64,000 bases of DNA. It comes from Escherichia phage vB_EcoM-Sa45lw. Made by a program: the position numbers and the translations under genes. Of this stretch, positions 2,393 to 50,568 are shown piece after piece (position 1 is the stretch's first letter; each line of letters begins with the position of its first letter). The stretch is from sequence record MK977694.1; one strand, written 5' to 3'. Under the pieces are notes generated by a model, which did no database searches, had not been told where the DNA came from, and saw only the letters and a program-made list of their open reading frames with translations.

Positions 2393-2417
2393 TCCAATAT
2401 CCTCATTTGCCCAATTA

Positions 2418-2447
2418 ATTATACCACATCCTTGTGGTAAAGTAAAC
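2418..2447 (-). promoter_or_regulatory. T4-type early promoter (GTTTAC, 18-bp spacer, TGnTATAAT)
   Basis: Minus strand reads GTTTACTTTACCACAAGGATGTGGTATAAT just upstream of rIIA.1. Confidence 0.7.
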
Positions 2448-9272: not shown

Positions 9273-10592
9273 TCACACATAAAATACGTCATAACGACCA
9301 CGGGTAACACCAACATAAAGAAGCTGCTGAGCTAGTTCAGCATCTGCATAATGAATACAAGGCGTATAAATGAAAGCACGGTCTACAGACATACCCTGAG
9401 CTTTATGGAATGTTGATGCAGGAAGCGCTTTCACTTTACTAAACTGTGATTTAGCATCCCAAAAATCACTCCACGGAGCTTTTCCGCCTTTATTCCAATT
9501 TTTATAAGTTTCTGCCGTTTTACCTAAAAACAGGTTAAACTTATATAGCTCTTCATCAGATGAAATTATTTTAATCTTTTCACGATAATATTCATCATCG
9601 CCGTAAGTTTCTACTGTTAAATCCCAATGACGAATTAAGTATTCTCCAGGAACACCACGAGCTTTAACAAACGTTGATGTATACTCTGCTTCTATAATAC
9701 GAACTAATTGTCCATTATTAAAAATAATTTCTGATACAGGCTTTCCATCAATTTTATATGTTTTAATTAATGGTTCCTGCATTACAATAATTTCACCGAC
9801 AATAAAATCTTTATCAGTTTCAAAAATCTTTTTACGAATAATGCTATTTAACTTGTCAACAGATTTATTCGTAAATGCCATTACGCGATTTTCAAACAAA
9901 TCATCTAGTGATTTGACGATTGAAAAATAATTTACCATAAAATCGCGTAAAGCGGTATCACCAGTAAATCCACGTACTCCATGCCCGTCAACAACTTTAT
10001 CATAAATCCACTTACCGTTGCGAACATCAGTAGCTACATCAATAATAGGAGCATTACTGCGTTTAACTTCAGTGAGTTCACACTGATAAAAATCTTTGTG
10101 TGTAAAAAATGGACTGATATAAGCAGTGTTTTCTCCTGGGTCAACAGGTCTAATTTGCTTATTATCGCCTATTCCAATTATAGTACACCACGGTGGGATA
10201 GTTGAAAGCAGAATTTTAAATAGCTTTCTATCATACATTGACACTTCGTCGCAGATTAATACCCTGCATTTAGCTAAATCTGGTACTTCCTTCTGTTCAA
10301 AAAGAACGTTTTCTTCATACGTAACTGGGTTAATTTTAAGAATACTGTGAATAGTACTCGCTTCTTTCCCCGACAGTTTTGAAAGAATCTTTTTAGCTGC
10401 ATGTGTAGGAGCTGCCAAAATGATACCAGTTTCGCCCGTAGATATTAAAGCTTCAATGATGAACTTAGTAAGAGTAGTCTTACCAGTACCAGCAGGTCCA
10501 TTAATAGTTACATGATGTTTCTTTTCTTTAATAGCCCTCATAACGATGTTAAAGGCATTTTTCTGACCTTCGGTCAAATCATCAAATGTCAT
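9273..10592 (-). CDS. dda: Dda SF1 DNA helicase
   Basis: 439-aa ORF, T4 Dda length; Walker A GPAGTGKTT. Confidence 0.92.
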   Translation of the reverse strand: MTFDDLTEGQKNAFNIVMRAIKEKKHHVTINGPAGTGKTTLTKFIIEALISTGETGIILAAPTHAAKKILSKLSGKEASTIHSILKINPVTYEENVLFEQKEVPDLAKCRVLICDEVSMYDRKLFKILLSTIPPWCTIIGIGDNKQIRPVDPGENTAYISPFFTHKDFYQCELTEVKRSNAPIIDVATDVRNGKWIYDKVVDGHGVRGFTGDTALRDFMVNYFSIVKSLDDLFENRVMAFTNKSVDKLNSIIRKKIFETDKDFIVGEIIVMQEPLIKTYKIDGKPVSEIIFNNGQLVRIIEAEYTSTFVKARGVPGEYLIRHWDLTVETYGDDEYYREKIKIISSDEELYKFNLFLGKTAETYKNWNKGGKAPWSDFWDAKSQFSKVKALPASTFHKAQGMSVDRAFIYTPCIHYADAELAQQLLYVGVTRGRYDVFYV

Positions 10593-10900
10593 CGTAAATT
10601 CCCTGCAATTGGTATACTAACAATACGCCCAGTATCTAAAATTCGCCGATATAATCTTTGTGTGTCTACATCAGGCTTAACGTGTTTAACTTCTATTTTA
10701 TTAAACCAAAACTTGCGTGGAGTTTCAACTAATCTTGGAATTCCCATACCTAAAGCTAGTCGATACTGCTCTTTAAGAGTGGTAAATACTCTATCAGCAA
10801 TCTCCCTTTCAAAAAACACAGCAGGACGATGTTCATCAAGTGGAACTGGCGCCGTAAATCCGTCTTTGTCTCGGTAAACTATCGCATATACATAAACCAT
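10589..10900 (-). CDS. hypothetical protein (dda.1-position)
   Basis: 103-aa ORF overlapping dda stop. Confidence 0.55.
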   Translation of the reverse strand: MVYVYAIVYRDKDGFTAPVPLDEHRPAVFFEREIADRVFTTLKEQYRLALGMGIPRLVETPRKFWFNKIEVKHVKPDVDTQRLYRRILDTGRIVSIPIAGNLR

Positions 10901-44982: not shown

Positions 44983-45225
44983 TTATTCCTTAATTCCTAG
45001 TACTTGTTTAAAAGTCTCGTCGTAATCAAGACTTTGGCCCGTTTGTTCTTTATGTTTGTATATAATATCACTTACTTCTGATAGCATATTTTTGTATGAA
45101 CGAGTTACAGCAGATTTAAGCACGCTGTATCTATCAGGAAATTTACCATGTTCATTATAATAAGCTATTGCTAATTCACGGACTGCCTTTTCAGCAGCCT
45201 CCATATATTCTTTACGCTTGGTCAT
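44983..45225 (-). CDS. hypothetical protein
   Basis: 80-aa ORF. Confidence 0.5.
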
Positions 45226-45227
45226 TT

Positions 45228-45617
45228 TTAATCCAAAATATTATTAGGCATTGGTTGAACACTCACAAGTTCTTTAAAGAACTCAGTAGAGTCAGGCAAT
45301 TTAACCATTTCCGGAGCATGCTTACTGAATTTATGTTTACATTGACGGCATTTATATTCAAGCTCTGGTTTACGCCAGTTAATCAATTGAACTTGTTCAG
45401 TACCGCATTCAGGGCAATTAGGAACGTTTTTAGAAGCTCTTTCACGTCGTTCAACCATAGCCATAATAGCATCCCATGCTGGAGGTTTAAAATCTAAATC
45501 ATCGCAGCCGTGAATCTTTCCACGCATTTCCATATCATCTTCCTCACCAGCCATAATAATTTTAATTAGACTAGAATTACTTGAAGCTGCAATGTCTTCT
45601 AATAAACGCTTTTTCAT
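45228..45617 (-). CDS. zinc-ribbon protein
   Basis: 129-aa ORF; CPECG...CRQCKH. Confidence 0.55.
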
Positions 45618-46543
45618 TTCAATACCTCAATAGCATTACGTAAACCATTTGCTTTGGCGGTTAAAGCCTTAAGAACTTTAGTATGCTCTTCAATTTGTTT
45701 TTCAACTTCAGTCAAACGGGCATTGAGATATTCACGTTCTTCACCCAGATTATCAACCTTTTCTACTTTAGGCTCTTTTACAACTGTCTTATATGTATTA
45801 GGGTTCTTCAGTTTAATTAGAATGCGTGAACTGTATAACATTGAACCATTATCTTCGGTTTCGTCATACATTTCCACTACGTCCATAATTTTTAACATCA
45901 TGCGGAGTTTATAAGACAACGAACGAATAGTTTTGTTGTGCTTATTAATTTCTTTAGCTGTCATGGTGCCGAGATTACGTGAGTAATAATAAGGAACCTG
46001 GATATTAATTAATACTGATGAACCACCTGGCTTGTGTGTTACTTCATCAGCAATAACCCAATCCTTAACATGAACTGTATTTGTACGGTCATCGCCCGCG
46101 GTAAATAGTTTACGAGCATGCTTAAAAAGCATATTCACTTGGTCATTGAATTGACAAGCGAATTTATCAGCAAATTTAGTTTCGGGAATGGTAGATAACC
46201 AATCAGCCAAATGAGTCTTTTTAACATCGTTAACAATAGTAAATTCAACCAAATCGGTTATAGATGTCTCAGATTTAATGAAGCTCGGCTTCATAAAGTT
46301 TTTAATGTTATCGCGAGCTACAGTAGAAGATAACATACGAGAACGTTTAAACCATTCAAGCAAATTGCCTAACGAATGAGAATAAGCGTTTTGAGTATCT
46401 TTACAGATATGATTTTCCTGGCCAACATATTGAAGGAAATCACGAAGAATATTATTGATTACTGCTCTGTGTCCTATCTGATAATTACGATGTTTAGTAA
46501 TAAGACTGTCAAAATAATCAATATAATGTTTACGAGTTTTCAT
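45614..46543 (-). CDS. coiled-coil-tailed protein, paralog A
   Basis: 309-aa ORF; MKTR N-terminus; C-terminal heptad-rich coiled coil. Confidence 0.6.
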   Translation of the reverse strand: MKTRKHYIDYFDSLITKHRNYQIGHRAVINNILRDFLQYVGQENHICKDTQNAYSHSLGNLLEWFKRSRMLSSTVARDNIKNFMKPSFIKSETSITDLVEFTIVNDVKKTHLADWLSTIPETKFADKFACQFNDQVNMLFKHARKLFTAGDDRTNTVHVKDWVIADEVTHKPGGSSVLINIQVPYYYSRNLGTMTAKEINKHNKTIRSLSYKLRMMLKIMDVVEMYDETEDNGSMLYSSRILIKLKNPNTYKTVVKEPKVEKVDNLGEEREYLNARLTEVEKQIEEHTKVLKALTAKANGLRNAIEVLK

Positions 46544-46595
46544 GTTCTTCTCACTTGGTTAATGATTTATACTCCGAGCCATCCTTGGCTTTAAA

Positions 46596-47597
46596 TTACT
46601 TAATTAACTGTAAAGCTTGTTCAAGACGATCCAGGCGATTAACAGATTCTTCCCAAATCCTTTTAGCCTGCTCATATTCTTTCTGCGCTTTATTAGAAAT
46701 TTCTAGAACTTCTTTATAAGCTTTTTCTAGTGCAATAACTTCTGGACGAATTTCTACCGGTTCAGGTGAATCATCAAGACATTCCATTAGTTCCTCAAGG
46801 GTAGTTTCTTCTTTAGGAGTATTCACAATTTCATCACATTTTTGTTGGTAAATTTCTTTACTAGTAGGTGAATAAGTACATTTCACTTCACGAAGACTAA
46901 CTACAATTTTATATCCTTCCCAACCGCATATATTCTTAAAAGGATATGTATGAATATTTTCTACTGTTTCCATACAAAGTAATGCGGTCTCTAATTGACG
47001 AGTTATAGTGCTAGCAATTGAGAAAAATTTATTAATGTTCTTTTGGTTAGTTTCTGGTGTAAAAAATCCATAATTCACAAAAATAGCTACTTTATTTTTA
47101 TCAAGTTCATATTCTTTTATGATAATCATATCAGAAGCCAAAGGATGAATTTGACGATAATCGCCATAACATAATTTAGAAGCTGATTTTAGAATTTGCT
47201 TCTTGAAAAGTCTGAAATTACTAATCCAACGACGAGTAAAAATATTCTCAGGGTCTTCTTTATTATTGAGATGATAAGAATTAACATCACCGAACCAATT
47301 ATATCCTACTACATCTTTAGTTCGTTTAATTTCTTTCCCAAAATTACCAAGAATATCCCGATTAACCAAATATGAAAGAAGACGAGACTCTTTAAAGGTT
47401 TTCTTGATAACATCTTTATCTACACGGCTAGAAATTTTACGAATTTCATGAATAAATTTAGTAGAAGAAACAATACTTGCATCAACACTATTGAGCCATT
47501 GATTGATAATAGAAAGAACGATATTTTGACCAAACATCGGTATAGCTTTATCATCAATAACGCTATTGAATGATTTGATATATTCGTTACGAGTCAT
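46596..47597 (-). CDS. coiled-coil-tailed protein, paralog B
   Basis: 333 aa from ATG at 47597 with GGAG RBS; MTR N-terminus. Confidence 0.6.
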   Translation of the reverse strand: MTRNEYIKSFNSVIDDKAIPMFGQNIVLSIINQWLNSVDASIVSSTKFIHEIRKISSRVDKDVIKKTFKESRLLSYLVNRDILGNFGKEIKRTKDVVGYNWFGDVNSYHLNNKEDPENIFTRRWISNFRLFKKQILKSASKLCYGDYRQIHPLASDMIIIKEYELDKNKVAIFVNYGFFTPETNQKNINKFFSIASTITRQLETALLCMETVENIHTYPFKNICGWEGYKIVVSLREVKCTYSPTSKEIYQQKCDEIVNTPKEETTLEELMECLDDSPEPVEIRPEVIALEKAYKEVLEISNKAQKEYEQAKRIWEESVNRLDRLEQALQLIK

Positions 47598-47625
47598 AAT
47601 AATCTCCTCAGTAGAAAGTAAGAAC

Positions 47626-47655
47626 ATTATACCACATCCTTGTGGTAAAGTAAAC
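47626..47655 (-). promoter_or_regulatory. T4-type early promoter
   Basis: Near-identical to the promoter at 2418..2447. Confidence 0.7.
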
Positions 47656-48674
47656 TAGTTCAGTGCATTTAATGCATTGTTCAGTTTAGAACGTTGCTTC
47701 GTGAGATTTTTGACTTTTTCTTGTGCTTTTTCTAGCATCTTTTCAGCTTCTAACACTTCATTGGTCGCTTTAACGAGTTCATCATCTACTGCCTTAAGGG
47801 ACTTCTCAATCGCATCCGCGTGCCATTTTTCAACAGGTTTAAGACTCGGATTTTCAATAGGAAGAAAATTCACTTTATTGAATTTCCATGCATCTTTATT
47901 ACCTGAACTATACATCCAAAATTTAGGATCATTTGACGAGTAATTAGATAAATTTAAGGTATCTTGTACTTCCTGCTTTTTCTCTTGTGTAACTTCGTCC
48001 TTTCTCAAAAAATCGTATTTAAATGAAACGATCATATCAAGTTCATATGTTGTTGTGTCTAATTTAAATCGTTCGAAATGCTGTGAAATCTTAGACTGAA
48101 CTGCAGCAACAACATCCATATACTTAAATGCTTCTGTCAGCTGTGATTTAAGGCATTCACAAATTGAAAGAGAATTTTTTGTATTAGGTTTAAAGCTAAT
48201 TCGTGCAGTTCTATTATTTTCTTTTAATGGTCTTACTTCCATCTGAAGAGTATAACCATCAAATTTCAGATTCTTTAAGTTAATATCAGAGCCTTTTAAT
48301 CGACTAGCCGTCGACAAAATTTGCTTTAATTGTTTACGGAATAGAGCAATAAATCTCCACTCAAGACGATAATGATTTGGATTAAAAAATCCAGATGATA
48401 AATCGACCTTACTCTGACCAACACCTTGAACAAACAGAGGATTTTTATAATCAATAGTTTTACAGAAATCGGTGAGCTGCTCACGAGCAGTCATTTGTGT
48501 AATATACCCCGCTTTACTAAAATGACGTAACCATTCACTGCTATTCATATATTTAAAGTGAATATCACGATTAACTTTATCAGGGTCTAAATTATTTTGG
48601 CACAAAAATGTCATAACATCACGAGTATAGCTGGCATTACGAACCATATCTTCAATTTGAGAACGAGTTTTCAT
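47655..48674 (-). CDS. coiled-coil-tailed protein, paralog C
   Basis: 339-aa ORF; MKTR N-terminus. Confidence 0.6.
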   Translation of the reverse strand: MKTRSQIEDMVRNASYTRDVMTFLCQNNLDPDKVNRDIHFKYMNSSEWLRHFSKAGYITQMTAREQLTDFCKTIDYKNPLFVQGVGQSKVDLSSGFFNPNHYRLEWRFIALFRKQLKQILSTASRLKGSDINLKNLKFDGYTLQMEVRPLKENNRTARISFKPNTKNSLSICECLKSQLTEAFKYMDVVAAVQSKISQHFERFKLDTTTYELDMIVSFKYDFLRKDEVTQEKKQEVQDTLNLSNYSSNDPKFWMYSSGNKDAWKFNKVNFLPIENPSLKPVEKWHADAIEKSLKAVDDELVKATNEVLEAEKMLEKAQEKVKNLTKQRSKLNNALNALN

Positions 48675-48682
48675 GGTGTTCC

Positions 48683-49591
48683 TTAAGATTTAAGTAAATC
48701 AACAATTTTAATTAACTTTTCACGCTCAGATTTAGCTTTACTACTCAATCCAGATAGTCTGAAAATTTCATCGTCATATTGTTGAATAGAAATATTTAGC
48801 TCTTCAATTTGCTTATTAAAATAATCAATTTGTTCAGAATGTTTTTCGTTACTACGAACTGGTACAGGTTTTGTAGGAAATTTAGTTAAACTGGATTCAT
48901 CCGGGCGATAAATTAAAATGCAATTTGAACCAATCGGGCATTTAGCACCAGATGAATATTCTAACGTTCCAGCTTCTTTTAAAACTTCAAAAGCTAAACA
49001 GAGATGATGCCCCATATTAACATAATCTGTAGAGCGAGCTCTGATATAATAATCATCGCCGCGAATACTAAATTTAAAGCATTTAAGGTCTTCTGTATTA
49101 TTGGTCTTAAAAATCATTTGTTTATCTAGACCTTTAGCTAATCGAGCGCCTAATGCTAATAATCGTCGTTGATTTTCCCACAAATCTGCGATCATTTGGT
49201 CAAATGATAATTTCGGCATTAATCGACCATAAAGGTCATATCCTTTATTATAATTGCGAAGAATTTCACTTGCATTAATACGAGACAATGCTCCAATTTT
49301 ATTAAGGGCTTTCATAATGCGATTAGATAAACCCATTCCAGACCCGTTTGTTCGCTGTAAATGTTTTTCTAATCCAAATCCAATATCAACTTTAAACTTA
49401 TCTAAAATTTCTGTATGAACATCTCTGTCAATAACATTCAAATCCAAAGTTGGGTTAAATCTATGAAAAAAATTATCTGGCTCTCCACGACGAAGTACAG
49501 TCCATTCATTCAATTTTTTATTAACTAAAGATTTAATTACTGCATTGACATTATTAATTACTACTGACATATTTTCCTCACTCAATTTCAA
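48683..49591 (-). CDS. coiled-coil-tailed protein, paralog D
   Basis: 302-aa ORF; same architecture. Confidence 0.55.
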   Translation of the reverse strand: MKLSEENMSVVINNVNAVIKSLVNKKLNEWTVLRRGEPDNFFHRFNPTLDLNVIDRDVHTEILDKFKVDIGFGLEKHLQRTNGSGMGLSNRIMKALNKIGALSRINASEILRNYNKGYDLYGRLMPKLSFDQMIADLWENQRRLLALGARLAKGLDKQMIFKTNNTEDLKCFKFSIRGDDYYIRARSTDYVNMGHHLCLAFEVLKEAGTLEYSSGAKCPIGSNCILIYRPDESSLTKFPTKPVPVRSNEKHSEQIDYFNKQIEELNISIQQYDDEIFRLSGLSSKAKSEREKLIKIVDLLKS

Positions 49592-49985: not shown

Positions 49986-50040
49986 AATAATCTCAATTAA
50001 AAGGGCTTAGAACCATTATACCATCCTTGGTATAAAGCGG

Positions 50041-50568
50041 TTATGCGAGTACCGTCTTTAACCGTTCTTCAAATTTCCGAAGAGTATTTTGGCGTTCAGC
50101 TCTTTGCTTTTTGTAAGTTTCAATACGCTCTGAAATGAGATTGTATCGTTCATTTACTGTTTCTTTCATAAAATCAGGAATTTCACGAGAAGCTTTAATC
50201 TCGTCAAATTTATCAATAACAGCTTGCTCTTCAGCAATTAAGTTATCATACATCAAAATATCTTTCTTGATGAACTCAATATCTTCTTGAGTTACACGAG
50301 ATAATTTAGATGCTTTATCCTTTTTGTACTGTTCGTTAGTATCACGAGACCAGTGTAATGTACGATTTTTATTCGTATTCTTGTAAATTTCTACAATACC
50401 AATCTCATCGATAATAACGATCCAATTCCAACGAGATTTGTAAATTTGTCCTCCGTCAACCATGATTTCACCTCCGATTGAGATGTCATTAAAGAACTTG
50501 CTTTGTGCTTCAGATTTAAATTTACCATCATTGTAGTTTACCAAGTTGAAAATATCTTTAGCATTCAT
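50041..50568 (-). CDS. hypothetical protein with coiled-coil C-terminus
   Basis: 175-aa ORF. Confidence 0.55.
   Translation of the reverse strand: MNAKDIFNLVNYNDGKFKSEAQSKFFNDISIGGEIMVDGGQIYKSRWNWIVIIDEIGIVEIYKNTNKNRTLHWSRDTNEQYKKDKASKLSRVTQEDIEFIKKDILMYDNLIAEEQAVIDKFDEIKASREIPDFMKETVNERYNLISERIETYKKQRAERQNTLRKFEERLKTVLA

Follow-up and report, generated by a model that had tools for sequence, protein, structure and literature searches.

The 64,000-nucleotide stretch of Escherichia phage vB_EcoM-Sa45lw analyzed here (sequence record MK977694.1; hereafter, the window) belongs to the genus Tequatrovirus of T4-like phages and carries, at positions 45614-49591, four consecutive minus-strand open reading frames (ORFs) that correspond one-to-one to nrdC.3, nrdC.4, nrdC.5, and nrdC.6 in the T4 reference annotation. 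We found that these four genes are paralogues that arose by old duplications within one Straboviridae family and have since diverged strongly, and we proposed, as a reading that appears probable with considerable room for doubt, that their products combine a variable head with a heptad-repeat tail and together form a counter-defence array whose members have different targets. In the databases, the array is split into three families (Pfam PF26897, PF23882, and PF26899; PHROGs 1435, 2351, and 2257). It is flanked by nrdC.2 and nrdC.7 within the nrdC-mobD region, and the surrounding ~5.6 kb were 97-98% identical at the DNA level to many Tequatrovirus genomes and matched 744 phage records. At the protein level, the identity to the T4 orthologues was 98% for nrdC.4, 96.5% for nrdC.6, 93.5% for nrdC.5 (339-340 amino acids, aa), and 61% for nrdC.3, which was 76% identical to NrdC.3 of the Mosigvirus phage JS09.

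The homology of nrdC.3, nrdC.4, and nrdC.5 was supported with high confidence by sequence and profile comparisons. The nrdC.3 and nrdC.4 proteins were 25% identical over 226 aa in BLASTP (E value 3e-7), were aligned by hhalign with a probability of 98%, and belong to one common PHROG; when nrdC.5 and nrdC.6 were compared with the other members by pairwise BLASTP, nothing significant was returned. An initial hhalign comparison with a shallow nrdC.5 alignment reached 48% and was suggestive only. After this alignment was enlarged with two distant 285-aa members recovered by an exhaustive HMMER search and with the JS09 protein, the combined nrdC.3 and nrdC.4 profile and the nrdC.5 profile were aligned end to end over 246 colinear columns with a probability of 92% (E value 5.8e-7), and the observed value of 55.1 compared with a maximum of 18.5 in 30 column shuffles and 15.1 for the reversed control. 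When only the N-terminal domains were compared, the probability was 78% (E value 1.8e-5). Thus, the relationship among the N-terminal domains that an earlier note, made from the sequence of this stretch, had put forward was recovered by profile comparison, both between nrdC.3 and nrdC.4 and between these two and nrdC.5. The exhaustive HMMER search with the nrdC.5 profile retrieved 13 representative clusters and zero cross-family matches. In a MAFFT alignment of all of the families, three motifs were in register, namely SR(L/I)L...(R/K)(D/N)xLxx(F/Y)xK, W..xF....LLxxA(S/R)(K/R)-L..G.D(K/R), and the terminal LxxA(L/I)xxLK; the paralogues that share this last motif were otherwise 12-25% identical. 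The paralogues were found to have no DNA repeats in common, so the duplications are old, and the array shows no recent duplication or gene conversion.

With good confidence, nrdC.6 is probably homologous to the other three genes as well, a link that comes from predicted structures and short motifs and not from significant profile scores. AlphaFold models were obtained for nrdC.4 (predicted local distance difference test, pLDDT, 82; predicted TM-score, pTM, 0.66) and for nrdC.6 (pLDDT 77.5; pTM 0.65). From approximately residue 120 onward, the two models presented their elements in an equal order and at near-equal residue positions. Two helices and a short third one are followed by a beta-hairpin, a long helix, and another beta-hairpin, and a linker of low confidence then leads to the terminal helix. 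In a Foldseek search of BFVD, the nrdC.4 model matched the JS10 NrdC.6 over its full length (E value 7e-5; probability 1.0), and the nrdC.4 and nrdC.6 models had seven targets in common (E values 6e-8 to 5e-4), all of them uncharacterized proteins of 304-335 aa from T4-like phages of Pectobacterium, Enterobacter, Klebsiella, Yersinia, and Acinetobacter. These matches bore out the expectation of a common N-terminal fold from the structural side; the core fold was seen in the predicted models of nrdC.4 and nrdC.6 and in their Foldseek matches, and reaches nrdC.3 and nrdC.5 through their profile homology to nrdC.4.

No known fold or solved relative was found; a sequence search of the PDB yielded no relatives, and the PDB matches to designed helical repeat proteins were rejected as relatives since the similarity was compositional. 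Scans with PADLOC and NCBIfam gave sub-threshold noise only. Residues 30-86 of nrdC.3 scored 13.6 bits against PF02899 (cut-off 22.3; E value 0.083) and 17.6 bits against NF001399 (cut-off 279), with E values of 0.0017 for an NCBIfam tyrosine recombinase and 0.011 for XerD, and no match to the N-terminal SAM-like (core-binding) domain of tyrosine recombinases was above the Pfam or NCBIfam cut-off; this resemblance could be a hint of nucleic-acid binding or helical-bundle noise.

The constant part of these proteins is their C-terminal end. The tails were charged (36-40% K/R/E/D, compared with 25-27% in the remainder of each protein) and were nearly free of Gly, Pro, and aromatic residues, and long tail helices were predicted by AlphaFold in nrdC.4 (residues 285-332) and in nrdC.6 (242-271 and 276-294). 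The hydrophobic periodicity at 3.5 residues was significant in all four tails (p <= 0.0025; 2000 shuffles per tail) and exceeded the signal at 3.6 residues, as coiled coils would show. The heptad-rich charged tails described in the earlier note were therefore confirmed, in that heptad hydrophobics in a long Pro/Gly-free helix were found in each of the four proteins; their self-association is a prediction. The motif LxxA(L/I)xxLK was located at the end of all four proteins and also in the JS09, SP18, and Acj61 members. The window has 122 minus-strand ORFs with a length of 60 aa or more, and a regular expression for the motif, set post hoc from the sequences themselves, matched 4 of them, exactly nrdC.3 to nrdC.6. 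Within each family, the tail ranked with the best-conserved segments, and variation was greatest in the N-terminal third. At the other end, three of the proteins begin with M(K)TR, as previously noted (MKTRKHY, MTRNEY, and MKTRSQ), and an N-terminal TR.EY motif is retained by distantly related proteins within the nrdC.3, nrdC.4, and nrdC.5 families.

The copy number of the array varied from one to four members among related phages, and chimeric genes were observed in addition. In particular, JS09 carries three members, a nrdC.6-like gene (32% identity), a nrdC.5-like gene (24%), and nrdC.3; the Gaprivervirus phage SP18 has nrdC.6 and nrdC.4 along with a nrdC.5-like gene that is split; ECO07P1 lacks nrdC.4; and ACG-C40 retains nrdC.6 together with a fusion remnant in which the start of nrdC.5 is joined to the end of nrdC.3. 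A similar nrdC.5/nrdC.3 chimera (P0119) was present on three contigs. In Acinetobacter phage Acj61, from a different subfamily, two adjacent members occupy the syntenic site between nrdC and nrdC.10, and both carry the heptad tail and the terminal motif; for Acj61p118, also considered as a family member, no relation was seen. Another candidate chimera (P0230, 173 aa), whose head is foreign and whose tail is identical to that of nrdC.5, was set aside, as its sole source is one 803-bp metagenome contig and it may be an assembly chimera. By tblastn, the phage collection contained 741 records with nrdC.6, 653 with nrdC.3, 619 with nrdC.5, and 553 with nrdC.4. The clearest trace of exchange was found in nrdC.3 of the window, in which the DNA identity to T4 dropped in the interior of the gene with sharp edges, and the protein-level identity profile showed a like pattern. 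Thus, we concluded that a head cassette was exchanged between conserved ends.

Several observations on individual alleles and on the neighboring genes accompany this picture. In the T4 record NC_000866, nrdC.6 (~9990-10900 of the compared piece, corresponding to 48683-48800 of the window) contains a frameshift just before the tail, after ...QIEEL, so that the annotated 275-aa product is without the coiled-coil end, and the tail can be read intact in a different frame; the T4 record OL964735 encodes the full 295-aa protein, and the frameshift reflects either a mutation of the laboratory strain or an error in sequencing. The NrdC.6 of Shigella phage Sf25 (P0121, 378 aa) harbors an exact internal tandem duplication of ~83 residues, with IRAHSTDYVNMG...QIEEL occurring twice, which extends from the middle of the core into the first part of the tail and may be real or an assembly artefact. 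Fragments of nrdC.4 in BFVD, from T2 (A0A2Z5WKJ2, 155 aa) and vB_EcoM_G8 (A0A482N302, 158 aa), with 96-97% identity, suggest that this gene is split or truncated in these phages. Adjoining nrdC.3, the 3' part of nrdC.2 (45189-45388 in the window; gene 45228-45617) was 38-44% identical to T4 at the DNA level, compared with 97-99% in its flanks, and the encoded zinc-ribbon protein has 129 aa here and 104 aa in T4; judging from these alignments, the C-terminal part of nrdC.2 is a second, putative cassette-like replacement. In addition, an extra ModA/ModB-like ADP-ribosyltransferase gene was observed between nrdC.10 and nrdC.11 in ACG-C40 (2388-2873) and ECO07P1 (1968-2453; both in coordinates of the compared pieces) but not in T4 itself, which again points to the region as a hot spot of accessory genes.

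A direct link to host defence is provided by nrdC.5. An evolved deletion clone of T4 showed no growth on cells equipped with dsr1, a sirtuin defence gene from ECOR17 (Srikant, Guegler & Laub 2022, eLife; PMC9391042), and expression of T4 nrdC.5 alone restored the infection of dsr1-carrying cells (PMC9391042). Dsr1 is a sirtuin (NADase) defence, and nrdC.5 was treated in that work as an isolated uncharacterized early gene (PMC9391042). The nrdC.5 of the window is, by its identity to the T4 protein and its equal position in the array, the orthologue of this tested gene, and we predict that the allele encodes an anti-Dsr1 protein, the activity itself being known from the T4 protein. Since nrdC.5 is known to switch off Dsr1 and the other three genes are its paralogues, the latter are good counter-defence candidates. 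The neighborhood contains further genes of this kind: gp49.2 inhibits OLD (PMC13096335), nrdC.1 inhibits Septu (bioRxiv 10.1101/2025.11.20.689424), and pin is a Lon protease inhibitor according to the T4 annotation. Genome-reduced T4 can lose a fragment covering nrdC.1-6 and stay viable; the array is thus dispensable and lies in the nrdC-mobD hyperplastic region. The reading in the earlier note, that these genes resemble families evolving under host-interaction pressure, therefore found support in the published anti-Dsr1 effect of T4 nrdC.5, in the varying copy number and chimeras, and in the replacement of the nrdC.3 interior as a cassette. In many GenBank records, the genes from nrdC.2 through nrdC.8 go under the names "thioredoxin", "Thioredoxin, phage-associated", or "Mur ligase domain-containing protein"; in Pfam and NCBIfam scans, none of the four proteins matched a thioredoxin or glutaredoxin family, and the thioredoxin label looks like a copy from the name of the nrdC gene.

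On this basis, we proposed that each protein would start with a variable helical region, which leads into an alpha/beta core built from two helices, a beta-hairpin, a long helix, and a further beta-hairpin; a disordered linker, differing in length between members, would then connect the core to an amphipathic heptad helix of 45-55 residues. The variable head would recognize a host defence protein, or its trigger or activator, and the constant tail may oligomerize the protein as a coiled coil and thereby provide avidity against oligomeric defence proteins. The nrdC.3, nrdC.4, and nrdC.6 products would then be counter-defence proteins with targets different from that of nrdC.5, and new specificities would arise through duplication, loss, and recombinational exchange of heads flanked by a conserved 5' end and a conserved tail. 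Several points weigh against this proposal. The AlphaFold models are based on shallow alignments of 17-22 sequences and cover nrdC.4 and nrdC.6; the Foldseek TM-scores were 0.37-0.5 with large root-mean-square deviations, modest values of the kind expected with a floppy terminal helix and linker in the comparison. The nrdC.6 profile gave no significant signal against those of nrdC.3 and nrdC.4 (hhalign probability <= 1.5%) and a weak one against that of nrdC.5 (P 0.0017). In the literature searched, no experimental function has been reported for nrdC.3, nrdC.4, or nrdC.6. Furthermore, the effect of nrdC.5 on Dsr1 could be indirect, for example, through masking of a trigger, and the oligomeric state of the tail is itself predicted.

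These points define the alternatives that we weighed. If the missing profile signal is taken at face value, nrdC.3, nrdC.4, and probably nrdC.5 would be true paralogues, and nrdC.6 an unrelated protein that resembles them through a widespread design, a small alpha/beta sandwich with a terminal amphipathic helix. We consider this quite improbable, as the full-length Foldseek match and the seven common targets, the secondary-structure elements at near-equal residue numbers in the two models, the motifs SR(L/I)L...(F/Y)xK, A(S/R)(K/R)-L..G.D(K/R), and LxxA(L/I)xxLK in register, and the constancy of the array position across genera all argue against it. The possible indirectness of the Dsr1 rescue leads to a different alternative, in which the family would consist of early host-takeover or nucleic-acid-associated proteins and nrdC.5 would act, for example, by hiding or removing a phage-derived trigger. 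This also appears unlikely: the similarities in its favor are all below curated thresholds, and the copy-number variation, the cassette exchange, the dispensability on laboratory hosts, and the proven anti-defence neighbors fit an arms race better.

The role of the tail invites more discussion, because the paralogues have kept the terminal motif to an unusual degree, and docking to a common partner or hetero-oligomers are therefore possible. The tail might be a docking helix for one common partner, a host hub or a phage protein, or might mediate association between paralogues rather than self-association. The LxxA(L/I)xxLK-COOH end is kept across the highly divergent paralogues and in Acj61, which exceeds the needs of a generic oligomerization coil, and the tail DNA of nrdC.3 remained 98% identical while its head was swapped; on the other side, a periodicity of 3.5 residues that extends over 46-52 residues is what coiled coils typically show, no partner is known, and the terminal helix is left free in the AlphaFold monomer models. 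On balance, we regard docking in place of self-association as rather doubtful. Somewhat less doubtful, and still tentative, is the broader idea that nrdC.3-6 and their Straboviridae relatives form a modular superfamily, in which the tail would assemble homo- or hetero-oligomers (a multi-headed inhibitor) or dock a common partner, and the head would set the target. If it were true, nrdC.3, nrdC.4, and nrdC.6 would each defeat a different defence system. We retained a diverged counter-defence array with variable heads and heptad tails as the working interpretation.

Table 1. Positions of the array genes, their modules, and the associated promoter and hairpin elements in the window.
Feature	Position	Strand	Evidence
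nrdC.3 orthologue, 309 aa	45614..46543	-	ORF; phrog_1435, E 1.6e-115, end to end
nrdC.4 orthologue, 333 aa	46596..47597	-	ORF; phrog_1435, E 4.6e-168, end to end; homologues carry PF26897
nrdC.5 orthologue, 339 aa	47655..48674	-	Pfam PF23882 (DUF7235), E 1.5e-122
nrdC.6 orthologue, 295 aa	48683..49570	-	ORF; phrog_2257, E 3.3e-152; homologues carry PF26899
nrdC.3 variable interior cassette	45689..46485	-	DNA identity to T4 55-84%, compared with 95-100% in flanks and 98% in tail-coding part
nrdC.3 heptad tail, last 46 aa, end LRNAIEVLK	45617..45754	-	heptad test 0/300 shuffles; 3.5-residue p = 0.0015
nrdC.4 C-terminal helix, residues 285-333, end LEQALQLIK	46599..46745	-	single predicted helix 285-332; 3.5-residue p < 0.0005
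nrdC.5 heptad tail, last 52 aa, end LNNALNALN	47658..47813	-	heptad test 0/300 shuffles; 3.5-residue p < 0.0005
nrdC.6 C-terminal helices, residues 242-295, end LIKIVDLLKS	48686..48847	-	model helices 242-271 and 276-294; 3.5-residue p = 0.0025
Hairpin GCCA-AGGA-TGGC followed by TATAAAT, between nrdC.4 and nrdC.3	46565..46589	-	intergenic
T4 early-type promoter TTTACT-N17-TGgTATAAT with spacer hairpin ACCACA-AGGA-TGTGGT, directly upstream of nrdC.4	47626..47654	-	PeSL-like
MotA-box-like middle promoter GCTTTA-N12-TATAAT with hairpin ACCA-AGGA-TGGT, upstream of nrdC.7	50015..50040	-	class inferred from the T4 middle-promoter consensus

The four consecutive ORFs reported in the earlier note were all present (table 1), and their lengths, given there as 302-339 aa, were corrected to 295-339 aa after two start codons had been moved. 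The start of nrdC.4 is most likely the ATG at 47597, with a GAGGAG Shine-Dalgarno sequence 7 nt upstream; the start of a longer, 343-aa ORF is disfavored because its ATG overlaps the -10 box of the gene's own promoter. For nrdC.6, the ATG at 49570 behind a GAGGA Shine-Dalgarno sequence is most likely used rather than the TTG at 49591 (302 aa), which overlaps the end of nrdC.7, and most GenBank records use this ATG. With these two starts moved, the lengths are 309, 333, 339, and 295 aa for nrdC.3 to nrdC.6, respectively. The assignment of nrdC.5 to PF23882 was unequivocal, with 409 bits over profile positions 1-307 of 307 and a gathering score of 30 bits; the nrdC.3, nrdC.4, and nrdC.6 proteins had no match to this model in the Pfam scan. 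The same scan returned no match to PF26897 or PF26899, and these two labels are the precomputed ones of homologues that are 38-98% identical. At higher position numbers, nrdC.8 (50041-50568; 175 aa) was considered as a fifth member by virtue of its charged helical end (…LRKFEERLKTVLA) and was rejected, as it is without the terminal motif, shows a weaker periodicity (p ~0.03), and is assigned to another PHROG. In one paper, the nrdC.8 transcript is described as reduced in DRT1-expressing cells; we consider its nucleotide-reductase label for nrdC.8 to be wrong.

Regarding expression, two of the genes had been credited with early promoters of their own. This holds for nrdC.4, which is preceded by the element at 47654-47626, but the element at 50040-50015 precedes nrdC.7 and, with its MotA box, looks middle-type. 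The latter is likely to be the start of a nrdC.7-nrdC.6-nrdC.5 transcript. The TATAAAT at 46565-46589 would agree with the T4 late-promoter consensus at 7 of 8 positions. A hairpin with an AGGA loop (xCCA-AGGA-TGGx) recurred beside or inside TATAAT or TATAAAT boxes at 50015-50040, 47626-47654, 46565-46589, and ~2410-2439 (minus strand), and the copy near 2439 was identical to that in front of nrdC.4 (TACCACAAGGATGTGGTATAAT). In combining a promoter-like box with a short hairpin beside the array genes, these elements are reminiscent of PeSLs, cassettes of a promoter and a stem-loop (Arbiol et al. 2010, PMC2839356; Comeau et al. 2014, PMC4122927), which are said to mediate modular shuffling in hyperplastic regions of T4-like phages (PMC2839356; PMC4122927). 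However, only the element at 47626-47654 fits the published early consensus of the PST/T4 pair, TTTACW-N17-TAYWAT (PMC4122927), and those at 50015-50040 and 46565-46589 look like middle-type and late-type variants.

The four T4 genes, the role of nrdC.5, and the general phenomenon are already known; therefore, the result is incremental and unsurprising for the hyperplastic region of T4. What is new is the merging of three separate database families into a single superfamily across Straboviridae, the common coiled-coil tail with its conserved end, the exchange of the nrdC.3 head cassette, and the proposal of three proteins as counter-defence candidates. Although no large lytic phage has been studied better than T4, nrdC.3-6 are still labeled "hypothetical" or, wrongly, "thioredoxin". 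Tying orphan families to one proven anti-defence member yields three concrete candidates for defence-panel screens, and the hypothesis of a variable head and a constant coiled-coil tail can guide truncation and chimera work on the inhibition of Dsr1. The replacement of the nrdC.3 head between near-identical flanks is a clear small-scale case of counter-defence diversification.

Among known systems, T4 NrdC.5 (DUF7235; PMC9391042) is the closest, with the gene at 47655-48674 as its orthologue and nrdC.3, nrdC.4, and nrdC.6 as remote paralogues of common architecture; the paper on T4 NrdC.5 (PMC9391042) did not include the relationship to these three genes, the common tail, or a mechanism. The gp49.2 and nrdC.1 inhibitors share with the array the pin-nrdC-mobD neighborhood, dispensability, variability between phages, and a correspondence of one gene to one defence system, but are small (~80-106 aa), unrelated in sequence, and outside the nrdC.3-6 family. 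A further parallel is DSAD1 of phage SPbeta, an inhibitor of the DSR2 sirtuin defence in a Bacillus host. Compared by description, DSAD1 is likewise a phage protein that neutralizes an NADase defence with a SIR2 domain, presumably through protein-protein binding, and differs in its Bacillus host and in being a single gene rather than an array of paralogues; it is not known to have a coiled-coil tail. The internal proteins of T-even phages (IPI, IPII, and IPIII locus) are polymorphic and injected, and bear a constant N-terminal capsid-targeting sequence. Although this module is N-terminal, whereas that of the array is a C-terminal heptad helix expressed from early or middle promoters, and although the sequences are unrelated, both systems join a constant short module to a highly variable body in a hyperplastic locus, both undergo gain, loss, and replacement among close relatives, and in both at least one member defeats a host defence.

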